IMG/VR virus record: IMGVR_UViG_2713896799_000009
Location: 1-37,500 of that record
Direction: 5' to 3' (one strand)
DNA from: a virus
Taxonomy: Duplodnaviria > Heunggongvirae > Uroviricota > Caudoviricetes
Length of the DNA: 37,500 nt
The notes under the pieces are model-generated. The model saw nothing but the letters and a program-made list of their open reading frames with translations. It made no database searches and had not been told where the DNA came from. Of this stretch, positions 22,900 through 28,809 are shown piece after piece. Position numbers and translations under genes: made by a program. Positions within the stretch are counted from its first letter, which is position 1, and each line of letters opens with the position of its first letter.

Positions 22900-22974
<75 letters not shown>

Positions 22975-22977
22975 ATA

Positions 22978-23053
<76 letters not shown>

Positions 23054-23055
23054 AC

Positions 23056-23132
23056 TGGACCGCCACCGGGGACTCGAACCTCGCACACTCAACTTAAAGG
23101 GTTGACGCTCTTTCCTGATGAGCTAGTGGCGG
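23056..23132 (-). tRNA. tRNA-like element (anticodon-position TTT, Lys-like), possibly a pseudo-tRNA
   Basis: Acceptor CCGCCAC/GTGGCGG, T-loop TTCGAGT, encoded CCA; but C at position 33 and a mismatch in the T-stem. Confidence 0.35.
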
Positions 23133-23133
23133 T

Positions 23134-23209
23134 TGGTGGCCCTTGCTGGATTTGAACCAGCGACCTGGCGATTATGAGTCGCTCGCTCTCACCACTGAGC
23201 TAAAGGGCC
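23134..23209 (-). tRNA. ileZ: tRNA-Ile2 (CAT anticodon, ileX/ileZ-like; tools often label it tRNA-Met)
   Basis: GGCCCTTTAGCTCAGTGGTGAGAGC...CTCATAA...GGTTCAAATCCAGCAAGGGCCACCA is near-identical to E. coli tRNA-Ile2. Confidence 0.8.
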
Positions 23210-23329
23210 GGGCGCAGGATAATAACGTTACGAAATCAATGTTGCAAGCATTCAAAAATCACCTGGTTAAAAATCACCCTTATCTCCTCCACCAGCGCAT
23301 TCACCATGTCTATCCGAGATAAGTGACAC

Positions 23330-23353
23330 AAAAAAACCGCTTGATGCGGGTTT
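23330..23353 (-). terminator. Putative tR'-like terminator in the late leader region
   Basis: Minus strand AAACCCGCATCAAGCGG followed by seven T residues; lies upstream of the tRNA cluster. Short stem; the late promoter itself was not located. Confidence 0.35.
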
Positions 23354-23473
23354 AAGTTGTGTGGCGAAGCGACCACTCTTAACAGATTAAGATAGTTTTT
23401 GCGTACGCGTTAGTGATTTTTTCATAATTATCTGTATCCTGTGGCTATTTCTCTTGCGCAAAGGATGCTTTTG

Positions 23474-24352
23474 ATGACGCAGCAACTCGAAAACATGCCA
23501 ATAACAGAAATCGAAATTGCCTACGGTGGAGAGGCATACGCAGATAATCAGATCGACGCGAAAACATTAGGCGAAGCCTTAACCTCTCTTAGTGCCCTGA
23601 TTGAACACGCCGAAAAAATAATTAATGGCGAAACAGCAGAGCCGAAAGTCAACATCAAGGCAACAAAAGAAGGTTCATTTACTTTGCTTGTTGCTGTGAT
23701 GGGGAGCATAAAAACTATTAACGCCCTTGGCCTCGTTGCAGGTGGTGGAGTTGCCGCAGGTGGCGTACTCGGGATAATCGAATGGCTCAAAGGGCGTAAA
23801 ATCAGCTCCATTGTCGTCGATGAACAAAAAGATACAGCAGAAATCGAAGTGGATGGTGAGAAGGTTAAATGCAGTAACGACATTCAAAAATTAATAACCA
23901 GTCCAATCATCCGAAAAGAACTGGATAAATTAATCTATAAACCCCTGCAGACTGAAAAACCATCCACGTTCTCAGTTTCACAGCAGAAGCATAAGGTAGT
24001 CAGGGTGACGCAAGCTGAAGCAGTAAGTTTTAAAACTGCAAAATCCACCTTTGTCGAGAAAACGCACGTAACGACACGCCAAGCTAATGTACATTTTGCT
24101 AATGTTCGATTCAAGCAAGGCAAAAGCTGGGATATCATCCTGCCAAATGGCGAAGAAGTTAGCGCATCTATGAAAGATGAGGCTTTTCTTGAACGGGTTG
24201 AACACAACCAAGCAGCATTCTGTAAGGGTGATCTTTTTGTTGTAGAACTGACAGAAACAACAAAAGAAACAAATGGCGCGCTGTCTAAACCACGCTATAG
24301 TATTACTAAGGTTATACGCCACAGAGCGGCGGCAGATAGGAAACTACTTTAA
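23474..24352 (+). CDS. Hypothetical membrane-associated protein, first gene of a three-gene cargo cassette
   Basis: AAGGA seven nucleotides before the ATG (MTQQLENMPITEIEIAYGG...); about 292 aa; central hydrophobic, glycine-rich segment (LLVAVMGSIKTINALGLVAGGGVAAGGVLGII); no homologue recognised; GC noticeably lower than flanking phage genes. Confidence 0.6.
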   Translation: MTQQLENMPITEIEIAYGGEAYADNQIDAKTLGEALTSLSALIEHAEKIINGETAEPKVNIKATKEGSFTLLVAVMGSIKTINALGLVAGGGVAAGGVLGIIEWLKGRKISSIVVDEQKDTAEIEVDGEKVKCSNDIQKLITSPIIRKELDKLIYKPLQTEKPSTFSVSQQKHKVVRVTQAEAVSFKTAKSTFVEKTHVTTRQANVHFANVRFKQGKSWDIILPNGEEVSASMKDEAFLERVEHNQAAFCKGDLFVVELTETTKETNGALSKPRYSITKVIRHRAAADRKLL

Positions 24353-24355
24353 ATC

Positions 24356-24601
24356 ATGTCAATCCTAAGCATTATGCTTTACATCACTGTATTCATGGCT
24401 GTCGCAGCGACGGTCAGATATGCTGTGCTTAGGTTCTTGGTTTGGGTAAAGCCGAATGCGTATATTGAACTAACCTACACCGATCCTGAAGGCAGAACCG
24501 CTAAAAGGAAAGTCAGCGTTAGAAACGAAAATGACGCAGAAGAGTTGGCGCTACTGCTACGCGAACTCAAAACTCGCAACGAAGCAAGTGCAGGAAGGTG
24601 A
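24356..24601 (+). CDS. Hypothetical small membrane protein (81 aa), cassette gene 2
   Basis: N-terminal transmembrane helix (ILSIMLYITVFMAVAATV); starts 4 nt after gene 1; stop abuts the gene 3 ATG (TGAATG). Confidence 0.55.
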   Translation: MSILSIMLYITVFMAVAATVRYAVLRFLVWVKPNAYIELTYTDPEGRTAKRKVSVRNENDAEELALLLRELKTRNEASAGR

Positions 24602-24988
24602 ATGGCGAACACTAAATCCTACCTGGCAATGCAGGCATGGTTTACCACCCTTATCACTGCGGGATTGAATTTCCTTTTTGACTGGCTTCCTCAATTAGCC
24701 TTCTTCAAATCATTGGCGCCTGGAGCTGCTGTCGGCTTATCTCATGTGGTAATTCTTCTTATCGCTTACATAGGTTTGCCTACGCTTAATGATGTAAGAA
24801 TGAAAAGGGAAATAAAAACGGCCAGAAAATTCATCACGAACTGCCTGGCCAACCCTAACCTAACACCAGACCAAATTGCGCACTACAACCAATGTCTTAT
24901 CGATCTAGACAATAAGCTATTAAAAAACATAAATATTCGTATTGATGCTTTATCTGACGCCGAATCGAAAGCTCAAGCAAACGAGTAG
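24602..24988 (+). CDS. Hypothetical membrane protein (128 aa), cassette gene 3
   Basis: Two predicted transmembrane helices and a charged C-terminal tail; AGGAAGGTG ribosome-binding site. Confidence 0.55.
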   Translation: MANTKSYLAMQAWFTTLITAGLNFLFDWLPQLAFFKSLAPGAAVGLSHVVILLIAYIGLPTLNDVRMKREIKTARKFITNCLANPNLTPDQIAHYNQCLIDLDNKLLKNINIRIDALSDAESKAQANE

Positions 24989-25001
24989 TAACAGTCATAA
25001 C

Positions 25002-25352
25002 TTATGATAGAATCAAGCATATACATCCATCAATAAAGCCTAATGCAGTTTGCAGCTCCTTTCTTATAGTTCCATCTGAGCACCTGCGTTTCTTCGCGAT
25101 TGAGCGTAGAGAAACACCAATAACAAAGTGAGCTATGAGCAGCTCATATTCCTCTGGTTTATACTTTCGCAACCGAGCCACACAACCGTCTATCATGATG
25201 CCTTCATCATCATCACACTGGAGACGTGACTTTTTGCCATGTGGCAAAAGCCCCTTGAAGCCCGCTGCTATCGGTTGCCAATCGACACCGCTATTTTCTG
25301 CTGCAGCCCATGCCCCCCAGCGATCTAAAACCTCATACATATCACGCCCCAT
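25002..25352 (-). CDS. Q: Late-gene antiterminator Q (QuuD / phage 82-21 Q family)
   Basis: VLDRWGAWAA...WQPIAAGFKGLL...CDDDEGIMIDGCVARL matches the QuuD-type Q family; start uncertain (candidates at 25340, 25352, 25358), overlapping the RusA stop. Confidence 0.8.
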   Translation of the reverse strand: MGRDMYEVLDRWGAWAAAENSGVDWQPIAAGFKGLLPHGKKSRLQCDDDEGIMIDGCVARLRKYKPEEYELLIAHFVIGVSLRSIAKKRRCSDGTIRKELQTALGFIDGCICLILS

Positions 25353-25719
25353 TACCATCACCTCTGATTTCGCAAATCTTCACGCCCAGTCGCCCACCAG
25401 GAACGAGCTGACCGCGCACAATATTGATTTCATCAAACTGCTCGTCGTCTATGAGAAGCCCCGCATGCGTCAGTGCATCCAGCGGTGCTTTCAGGATATT
25501 GTCCAGGTCGCGACGACGCTTATCCGGTGGCTCTGCAATCACCTTTATCGCCAGCCTTCCGGACAGGTTTAATTTCAGCCGCTGCTGGCGAACAATTAGC
25601 GCCACATCACGGCGATAACGCTTTCCGGCCTCCGAGATGAAATACGTATTGCCATGACGTCGCCAGTAGGTATTCACCGTCGGCGGGTAAGGCAAAACAA
25701 ATTCTATGCGTTCAGTCAT
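25342..25719 (-). CDS. rusA: RusA Holliday junction resolvase
   Basis: 125 aa; MTERIEFVLPYPPTVNTYWRR... is characteristic of RusA; typical nin-region position before Q. Confidence 0.85.
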   Translation of the reverse strand: MTERIEFVLPYPPTVNTYWRRHGNTYFISEAGKRYRRDVALIVRQQRLKLNLSGRLAIKVIAEPPDKRRRDLDNILKAPLDALTHAGLLIDDEQFDEINIVRGQLVPGGRLGVKICEIRGDGNGA

Positions 25720-27999: not shown

Positions 28000-28809
28000 A
28001 TGACGAAAATTAGTGAACGATGGAAGCACAATGGCATTACTGAAGGTTATTGCAATATTTGTGGGAAATATGGCTTGCTCACAAAAGATCATGTTCCTCC
28101 AAAGTGCGCCATAACCTTAGGCCCTGTTTTGCAGAAAACAGTTAGCGAATTTTTTGGTATTCAGGAACCAGTTAAACCATTAAATGCTAAAAATGGCTCT
28201 TATTTCAGAACCATTTGCAGCCACTGTAACAATAAGGTATTAGGTGGGCTCGATGTTGCAATTGAAAATGTAACAAAGTCCTTTAAAGAACAGTTAAGTC
28301 GATATATGAATGGTATGAATGTATATCCATTCATTAGAATACCTTTTGATAGCATATCTTTCACTAAGGCTATGATTGGGCACGTGCTATCAGCAACTTC
28401 AGTTGAAGATTGTAAAAAAGAACCCGTAGATAGCCCCTTCTATACACCTTTAAAGGATTATGTTTTGGGTAAAAATTCAAGTTTTGAGGAAACTCATGAT
28501 ATTTACTACTGGTTTTACCCACACAGAATGCACATATCCGCTCAAAGTGTAGCATTTATGAACGAAGGACATGTGGCATTTATTTGTGCTTTACATTTTT
28601 TTCCTATCGGTTTTATTATCACAATGAAAAATGAAGGAACATACCCTGCCCACTCTACAAAATTAGAACTTGAAGATAAATTCCTTACATTTAATATGAC
28701 CTCTATAAATTATGAGTATACGACATTTCCATTTGTAAATCTTAAGGGAAACCAAATGTATGCGATAAGCAACGGTCATACTTGTGTGAGTTATCCAATA
28801 ATTAAGTGA
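28000..28809 (+). CDS. Hypothetical protein with N-terminal HNH-like nuclease motif and an unrecognised C-terminal domain
   Basis: 269 aa; GAGGGAA ribosome-binding site; motif C-x2-C...DH-VPPK...N...C-x-H-C-N-N-K in the first 80 aa; about 190 aa of C-terminus without recognisable similarity; AT-rich gene and promoter region unlike the flanking DNA. Confidence 0.6.
   Translation: MTKISERWKHNGITEGYCNICGKYGLLTKDHVPPKCAITLGPVLQKTVSEFFGIQEPVKPLNAKNGSYFRTICSHCNNKVLGGLDVAIENVTKSFKEQLSRYMNGMNVYPFIRIPFDSISFTKAMIGHVLSATSVEDCKKEPVDSPFYTPLKDYVLGKNSSFEETHDIYYWFYPHRMHISAQSVAFMNEGHVAFICALHFFPIGFIITMKNEGTYPAHSTKLELEDKFLTFNMTSINYEYTTFPFVNLKGNQMYAISNGHTCVSYPIIK

Follow-up and report, generated by a model that had tools for sequence, protein, structure and literature searches.

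A three-gene cassette beside the antiterminator Q of a lambdoid Escherichia coli prophage carries a homologue of MichelleMyBell gp29 and is probably an anti-phage module of the abortive-infection type

We analyzed a window of 37,500 nucleotides from a tailed phage (positions 1 to 37,500 of IMG/VR record IMGVR_UViG_2713896799_000009) and, within it, a cassette of three genes next to the gene for the antiterminator Q. The first gene, ORF1, encodes a full-length homologue of gp29 of the mycobacteriophage MichelleMyBell, which is half of a proven anti-phage system. A first-pass annotation, made from the sequence alone, had called the cassette unrecognised and the best candidate for an undescribed system. 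Both descriptions had to be given up, because ORF1 is already present in phrog_3243, in PADLOC PDC-S42, and in NCBIfam NF053583, and because its homology to gp29 makes the cassette, as judged from sequence, an E. coli variant of a known defence module. The same annotation had guessed at superinfection exclusion or abortive infection, and this guess is the reading best supported by the homology between ORF1 and gp29. We suggest, with a probability of roughly 0.6, that the cassette is a mobile, prophage-borne module that defends against phages in the manner of abortive infection, in which ORF1 would be a gp29-like effector and the products of the other two genes, ORF2 and ORF3, its membrane partners.

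RESULTS

ORF1 belongs to the gp29 family

We used the MichelleMyBell genome KF986246 (accession taken from PMC4939774) for comparison. A profile of 142 diverse ORF1 homologues aligned with gp29 over the full length (hhalign probability, 98.8%; E = 4.6e-17; 269 columns), and pairwise BLASTP of ORF1 against gp29 gave 22% identity over 274 amino acids (aa), with an E value of 5e-7. The same models recognize both proteins. The phrog_3243 profile matched ORF1 with an E value of 2.7e-94 and gp29 with one of 7.3e-81. The PDC-S42 model PDLC05015 matched ORF1 at E = 3.3e-53, where residues 22 to 299 of a 303-aa form of the protein aligned with positions 4 to 294 of the 302 in the profile, and matched gp29 at E = 1.6e-16. 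Both models also matched ORF19 of Lactobacillus phage A2 and gp4 of the Vibrio phage PE001. The GenBank note on the Vibrio homologue reads "MMB_gp29_gp30__gp29," which we take to be a DefenseFinder model name. These shared models, together with the profile and pairwise alignments, therefore place ORF1, gp29, A2 ORF19, and PDC-S42 in one family. Among the PADLOC v2 models, those of PDC-S42 alone matched ORF1, and the others (Rex, Abi, CBASS effectors, and the rest) did not.

The phenotype of this family comes from MichelleMyBell, in which gp29 acts together with gp30 to protect lysogens against a heterotypic phage. A passage of PMC8549241 reports that plating of phage Tweety drops by 4 to 5 logs on MichelleMyBell lysogens, and that Tweety gp54 is a tunable counter-defence. 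The system is called typical of abortive infection in a part of PMC6426606, according to which adsorption and DNA injection proceed. A statement in PMC11856565, citing Dedrick et al. (2017), has gp29 as toxic and gp30 as a putative membrane protein, and describes the mechanism as unknown. In its sequence, gp30 is a 67-aa protein with two transmembrane segments.

ORF1 also scored 225.3 bits against NF053583 (cut-off, 60), a family named "LAPAL motif-containing putative phage structural protein." The literal LAPAL motif near residue 25, which many distant members have, is not in ORF1; the sequence there is DAKTLGEAL. An exhaustive profile search returned 2,917 representatives of 50%-identity clusters at E ≤ 1e-3, and those listed were nearly all 280 to 315 aa long. 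The gp29 family spans Actinobacteria, Firmicutes, and Proteobacteria, and a second homologue search with a broad alignment added three further proteins only. Among sequenced phages, tblastn found four records, namely, two of Lactobacillus phage A2, Bifidobacterium phage Bbif-1, and a tectivirus-like Vibrio phage element, and megablast found no close DNA relatives. The Pfam domain DUF7946 covers the N-terminal domain in 56 of the 142 family members. We found no literature on DUF7946, on PDC-S42, on the "LAPAL motif," or on the two RefSeq protein accessions.

The AlphaFold2 model of ORF1 (pLDDT, 77; pTM, 0.67) has an N-terminal alpha/beta domain (residues 11 to 76), a low-confidence helix-loop-helix over a glycine-rich hydrophobic stretch (residues 79 to 105), a mixed middle domain (residues 112 to 186), and a C-terminal beta-barrel (residues 195 to 284) that is OB-like and lies within the beta-rich C-terminal half. 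The glycine-zipper hydrophobic segment is followed by WLKGRK, and a basic motif usually follows this segment in the family alignments. Across the 142 members, the central segment has a median peak hydropathy (KD19) of 1.60, and the value in the enterobacterial branch is 1.81. The near-invariant residues of the family (Y17, L32, G67, S68, G86, R147, P157, W219, D235, F238, and V280) do not look like a catalytic set, and no enzyme fold was found for ORF1.

Kinship with EACC1 (PF19953) was considered and rejected, as only 3 of the 142 family members matched it (best E = 0.016). ORF1 scored 15.6 bits against EACC1 (gathering cut-off, 23.6; E = 0.016 to 0.018) over the hydrophobic segment and the strands that follow it. 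We treat this match as chance or compositional.

The cassette is a conserved three-gene operon

The cassette and its start signals are as follows.

23461 to 23465, plus strand: Shine-Dalgarno sequence AAGGA, 8 nt ahead of the ORF1 ATG, read from the sequence
23474 (ATG) to 24352, plus strand: ORF1, 292 aa, gp29-like core protein
23441 (GTG), plus strand: alternative upstream start, giving a longer ORF1 of 303 aa
24356 to 24601, plus strand: ORF2, 81 aa, N-terminal transmembrane helix and then a tail of about 50 aa
24602 to 24988, plus strand: ORF3, 128 aa, weak helix, strong transmembrane segment, and polar C-terminal tail

The ATG at 23474 is the likely start of ORF1, because it is preceded by the AAGGA Shine-Dalgarno sequence, matches the starts of homologues, and is also the start called by PGAP. 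ORF1 and ORF2 are separated by 3 nt, and the ATG of ORF3 directly abuts the ORF2 stop codon. The same three-gene order and sizes were found at every sufficiently long locus among L002 to L033, two of which end prematurely at a contig end, with ORF1 identity down to 37%. Compared with two diverged copies (L016 and L021), the ratio of nonsynonymous to synonymous substitution rates (dN/dS) was 0.04 to 0.08 across the ORFs (0.06 to 0.08 for ORF2 and 0.04 to 0.06 for ORF3), and all three genes are under strong purifying selection. Because the order and sizes recur and dN/dS is low, we conclude that the three ORFs are genes and not chance ORFs. The cassette is a translationally coupled, conserved three-gene prophage operon. 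The first-pass annotation had described three tightly coupled plus-strand ORFs of 292, 81, and 128 aa, and their positions, sizes, and coupling agree with that description.

Two further features that it had listed, a lower GC content than the flanking genes and hydrophobic segments in each protein, were also found. The GC content of the cassette is 0.434, compared with 0.528 for the RusA-DUF968 genes, 0.506 for the lysis genes, and 0.504 for the whole window. ORF1 has a single central hydrophobic stretch rich in glycine and alanine (about residues 69 to 104; peak KD19, 1.81). ORF2 has one N-terminal transmembrane segment (KD19, 2.18), and ORF3 has a strong segment at residues 41 to 59 (2.12) and a weaker N-terminal one (1.32), both of which are stronger in some homologues.

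Hydrophobic segments in all three proteins could also point to superinfection exclusion at the envelope, in which incoming phages would be stopped by the three membrane-associated proteins, at DNA entry or at the receptor, and the cell would survive. Small prophage membrane proteins often act in this way, Charlie gp32 being one example (PMC9262239). However, adsorption and DNA injection are the very steps reported to proceed in the MichelleMyBell system (in the part of PMC6426606 cited above), the positive-inside rule, applied to the sequences, would make the soluble domains of each protein cytoplasmic, and no signal peptide or lipobox was noted on inspection of the three proteins. We therefore consider exclusion at the envelope quite unlikely.

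ORF2 and ORF3 are predicted membrane partners of ORF1

ORF2 matched phrog_27630 (E = 8e-57) and has basic residues just after its transmembrane helix. ORF3 matched phrog_26468 (E = 6.7e-89) and consists of a weak hydrophobic helix (about residues 8 to 26), a transmembrane segment (residues 41 to 59), a basic stretch, and a polar C-terminal tail of about 65 aa that looks helical by eye. Neither protein matched any PADLOC v2 model at E ≤ 1. Profiles of 14 ORF2 sequences and 13 ORF3 sequences showed no similarity to gp30 by hhalign (probabilities of 0.2% and 0.4%, respectively).

ORF2 lies directly 3' of the gp29-like gene in E. coli, Orbaceae, Vibrio, and Wohlfahrtiimonas, and its residues P33 and G46 are invariant. 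ORF3 is the third gene at all gammaproteobacterial loci examined, and at these loci the gp29-like gene never occurred without ORF2 and ORF3. The three-gene form thus consists of a gp29-like gene, a gene for a 70- to 85-aa protein with an N-terminal transmembrane segment, and a gene for a 110- to 160-aa protein with hydrophobic N-terminal segments and a C-terminal tail that is polar and probably helical. It is present in E. coli, other Enterobacterales, Orbaceae/Gilliamella, Vibrio, and Wohlfahrtiimonas, with ORF1 identity down to about 24%. ORF2 is absent from the PGAP table of the RefSeq record L001 (10058 to 10303). In a 52%-identical variant of the cassette, ORF2 is called in L041 and is missing from the public gene calls of L039, L040, and L042.

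The distant LAPAL subfamily is organized differently. About 53 of its 55 viral loci have no small transmembrane ORF directly downstream, and in phage A2 a terminator directly follows ORF19. Because the gene stands alone at most LAPAL loci and in A2, we regard the core of the family as a single gene and the cassette as a lineage-specific three-gene elaboration. The "S" in the PADLOC name presumably denotes an untested single-gene candidate. A single gene is what the LAPAL subfamily and phage A2 have, whereas the gammaproteobacterial loci do not.

Tight coupling and co-conservation of the three genes would also be expected of an addiction module, that is, a selfish toxin-antitoxin-like element in which ORF1 is the toxin, ORF2 and ORF3 neutralize it, and loss of the genes kills or harms the cell and so stabilizes the prophage or island, with no meaningful anti-phage role in E. 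coli. The toxicity of gp29 stated in PMC11856565 fits such a module, and so does the presence of the cassette on many mobile elements, with hok or ParE/PaaA2-type modules adjoining it in related prophages. However, the characterized homologue confers the 4- to 5-log defence reported in PMC8549241, and most family members have no partner gene able to act as an antitoxin. A purely addictive role is therefore unlikely in our view; addiction and abortive infection can also coexist and are not mutually exclusive.

The cassette adjoins Q and a putative late-promoter block

The features around the cassette are listed below, in order from Q toward the tRNA genes.

25002 to 25361, minus strand: antiterminator Q (PF06530 Phage_antitermQ, E = 3.8e-45), convergent with the cassette
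24995 to 25000, no strand: right junction TCATAA, second copy of the repeat, 1 nt from the Q stop codon
23422 to 23427, no strand: left junction TCATAA, a copy of the 6-bp direct repeat, from the alignment with W224N
23399 to 23428, plus strand: putative sigma-70 promoter TTGCGT-N18-CATAAT, read from the sequence, with a weak -35 (3/6)
23420 to 23372, minus strand: conserved non-coding block AAAATCACTAACGCGTACGCAAAA ... TGTTAAGAGTGGT, putative pR', Q-binding, and pause region
23389 to 23384, minus strand: candidate -10 element TAATCT within the conserved block
23353 to 23330, minus strand: hairpin and run of seven T's, terminator-like, putative tR', just upstream of the tRNA genes
22900 to 23209, minus strand: cluster of four tRNA genes (Gly, Thr, Lys, and one with a CAT anticodon), found by ARAGORN

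Beyond the tRNA genes lies a phage-21-type lysis set, namely, a holin of the S21 family, DUF1327, lysozyme, and Rz. The cassette segment is 1,573 bp long, with the TCATAA repeat at both edges. The cassette-free E. coli W224N has a Q that is 99% identical to that of the window, and its block, AAAATCACTAACGCGTACGCAAAA ... TGTTAAGAGTGGT..CTTCGCCAC, starts about 8 bp past the Q stop codon and is followed by the hairpin and T-run. For the cassette-free H74, with a Q about 95% identical, the match starts exactly at 24995. The TCATAA repeat could be a target-site duplication. However, the repeat was not seen in the diverged copies L016 to L021, and we therefore claim no transposition mechanism.

The conserved block is invariant in the window, in L016, L017, L019, and L021, and in the cassette-free W224N. 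It is unchanged even in copies in which the Q-cassette-leader module around it has diverged to about 70% nucleotide identity. We infer from this pattern that the block is the late promoter and Q-loading region of this Q. The cassette had been described in the first-pass annotation as sitting exactly where stx does. It does lie between Q and the tRNA and lysis genes. However, it is predicted to be upstream of the late leader, and not in the stx position, because the block directly follows Q in the cassette-free relative. If the block is pR', then the cassette lies between Q and pR' and is outside the late transcript. There is also a promoter-like site at the 3' end of Q (25033 to 25004) that would drive late transcripts antisense through the cassette. 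Late transcription from that site is less likely, because the invariant block is on the far side of the cassette.

The left junction is only about 45 bp away from the ORF1 ATG. A promoter of the cassette must therefore share sequence with the conserved block and be oriented away from pR'. The promoter candidate scores below the threshold of the scan tool. A -10-like hexamer is present at the equivalent spacing in L016 and L017, as read by eye from the alignment.

About 950 E. coli genomes, O157:H7 strains among them, share the segment from 23210 to 23353. A 36-aa "antiterminator" coding sequence in the RefSeq annotation, at about 23266 to 23376 on the minus strand (8968 to 9078 in L001), overlaps the terminator-like hairpin and the shared leader and may be a spurious or relic annotation. 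The tRNA with the CAT anticodon (23134 to 23209, minus strand) is called Met by ARAGORN, and its counterpart in L001 is annotated by PGAP as tRNA-Ile, presumably of the lysidine type.

The cassette is cargo that moves among prophage backbones

Besides the window, 37 of 5,426 complete E. coli genomes have the cassette next to this Q. The 52%-identical variant (289, 79, and 130 aa) lies on the early-gene strand between hokD and DUF968 in related E. coli prophages (L039 to L042, 8001 to 9507). In Orbaceae and Gilliamella, the cassette is found in Mu-like prophages, on the repressor side and just upstream of the lysis genes, and the Wohlfahrtiimonas copy is in a P2-like prophage, where it lies downstream of the S24 repressor gene. 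Enterobacter hormaechei carries it beside core genes, in a small island that encodes a serine recombinase and a VapE-like protein but has no virion or lysis genes. In Tatumella saanichensis (L002, 2124 to 4522), the cassette is a few kilobases downstream of a gene for a 548-aa YVDD reverse-transcriptase-like protein and its 251-aa partner, a neighbourhood that suggests a defence-island setting. The cassette is thus cargo: it moves between different slots in unrelated prophages and is also found in an island that lacks virion genes.

These contexts bear on a phage-intrinsic role, in which ORF1 is a virion structural protein or a lysis accessory. Such a role is implied by the name of NF053583, and the cassette or gene has lysis genes nearby in MichelleMyBell and phage A2 as well as in the window and the Mu-like prophages. 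However, the RefSeq label "structural protein" is contradicted by the island without virion genes, the repressor-side location, and the hokD-DUF968 context. The Enterobacter island lacks lysis genes as well, and other copies of the cassette occupy the nin region or adjoin a P2-like repressor. The copy in the window lies on the opposite strand, outside the putative late transcript. Furthermore, this Q type is present in 276 E. coli genomes, only 37 to 38 of which have the cassette, and the homologue has a defence phenotype. A phage-intrinsic role is therefore very improbable, and we favour the reading of the cassette as anti-phage cargo.

A three-gene gp29-like cassette also lies by the integrase of Vibrio phage 10N.286.45.F8_PE001 (L049, 8004 to 9608), which has a 14-kb, tectivirus-like (Vinavirales) genome. 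Because the cassette is present in this genome, the module is carried by non-tailed phages too.

The first-pass annotation had proposed comparison with related prophages to see whether the slot is variable, and relatives do carry other genes near the same Q type, either an AB5 toxin or a Dcm gene with a DUF262/HEPN pair. The cassette-free strains W224N (L045, 1567 to 2853) and Combat2C1 (L135, 1991 to 3277), which have the same Q, encode a scabin-related ADP-ribosyltransferase and a subtilase-family AB5 binding subunit. These toxin genes are between the late leader and the holin genes, which is the classical toxin-cargo position. Downstream of an 86%-identical Q, E. coli SCU-387 (L134, 536 to 3394) has a Dcm DNA cytosine methyltransferase and, on the opposite strand, a DUF262 protein and a HEPN-like nuclease, which are further defence-like cargo near Q.

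Elsewhere in the window, a 269-aa ORF at 28000 to 28809 (plus strand) lies opposite the early genes. It has a GC content of 0.349 and the cysteine-rich motifs CNICG...DHVPPKC and CSHCNN. It is present at full length in 136 E. coli genomes, where it is annotated as hypothetical, and its sole match was phrog_21495 (unknown function), while Pfam, NCBIfam, and PADLOC gave none. This ORF may be a cargo gene that is less characterized than the cassette.

DISCUSSION

We suggest the following scheme for the cassette as an abortive-infection-type module. Transcription in the lysogen would start at the weak sigma-70-like promoter, which points away from the late-promoter region. ORF2 and ORF3 would sit in the inner membrane with their tails in the cytoplasm, as predicted by the positive-inside rule. 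The hydrophobic glycine zipper of ORF1 would bring this protein to the membrane, and ORF2 and ORF3 would hold it inactive there. Infection by another phage would be detected in the cytoplasm, perhaps through the OB-like C-terminal half of ORF1. The released ORF1 would then damage the membrane or arrest growth, and the infected cell would yield no phage. We propose membrane damage by ORF1 and gating by ORF2 and ORF3 because ORF1 has no enzyme-like fold, because of the hydropathy profiles and the positive-inside rule, and by analogy with gp29 and gp30.

A more specific version of this scheme is that the ORF1 class represents new non-enzymatic abortive-infection effectors, in which a cytoplasmic phage cue received by the OB-like half causes the glycine-zipper hairpin to insert into the inner membrane and permeabilize it, with ORF2 and ORF3, in gammaproteobacteria, gating or nucleating the process. 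As a side possibility, because the cassette promoter overlaps the putative Q-binding block, the prophage's own Q may switch the system off while the prophage itself grows lytically. We offer this version tentatively and hold it to be doubtful.

Several points weigh against an abortive-infection module. The phenotype is that of the mycobacteriophage member, whereas the proteobacterial members are known from their sequences, and PADLOC lists the ORF1 family as a candidate only. Because ORF2 and ORF3 have no similarity to gp30, the logic of toxin and neutralizer is drawn by analogy only. The central segment of gp29 itself is too weakly hydrophobic to score as a transmembrane segment. Membrane partners are not essential to the family, as judged from the many LAPAL loci without one. 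Finally, the promoter, the expression in the lysogen, the topology, and the trigger are all predictions.

The enterobacterial three-gene form, the two partner families, and the position between Q and pR' appear to be new, as we found no description of them in the literature searched. An E. coli cassette in an ordinary lambdoid prophage offers a workable model for the trigger and the killing step of the gp29 family. The findings also call for changes in annotation. The name "structural protein" for ORF1 does not agree with its genomic contexts, ORF2 is a gene under selection that PGAP leaves uncalled in L001, and in gammaproteobacteria the apparent single-gene candidate of PADLOC is an operon of three genes. 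In this Q family, cargo would insert between Q and the putative late promoter, at a site other than the classical stx position.

Comparison with known systems

EACC1 is a protease-activated, pore-forming defence effector (bioRxiv 10.1101/2025.11.14.688446). ORF1 is likewise small and non-enzymatic, with a hydrophobic core element, but no protease gene adjoins the cassette, and the score of ORF1 against EACC1 is below the cut-off. Lambda RexAB and Sbash gp30/gp31 are, like the cassette, lysogen cargo that combines a cytoplasmic component with one or more small inner-membrane proteins, and they are proposed to make the membrane lose its integrity and to abort the infection (PMC6426606, PMC6426596). 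However, they have no sequence relationship to the cassette, and the likeness is in the proposed logic only.

ORF1 is far above the cut-off of NF053583, and gp29 is in the same PHROG, phrog_3243. ORF1 differs from the NF053583 description in having DAKTLGEAL rather than LAPAL, and in genomic contexts that contradict the family name. PDC-S42 is shared by ORF1, gp29, and A2 ORF19, all of which match PDLC05015, whereas the cassette is a conserved three-gene operon and its ORF2 and ORF3 match no PADLOC model.

The cassette differs from MichelleMyBell gp29/gp30 in several respects. ORF1 and gp29 are only 22% identical, and gp30 has no detectable similarity to ORF2 or ORF3. There is one partner gene in MichelleMyBell and there are two here, and the host here is a Gram-negative enterobacterium in which the cassette is known as a sequence. 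The small membrane proteins at the position of gp30 in the cassette are thus comparable with gp30 by analogy only. Nevertheless, ORF1 and gp29, each about 300 aa long, are homologous over their full length, and in both cases the gene is prophage cargo by the lysis region with the gene for a small membrane protein directly after it.

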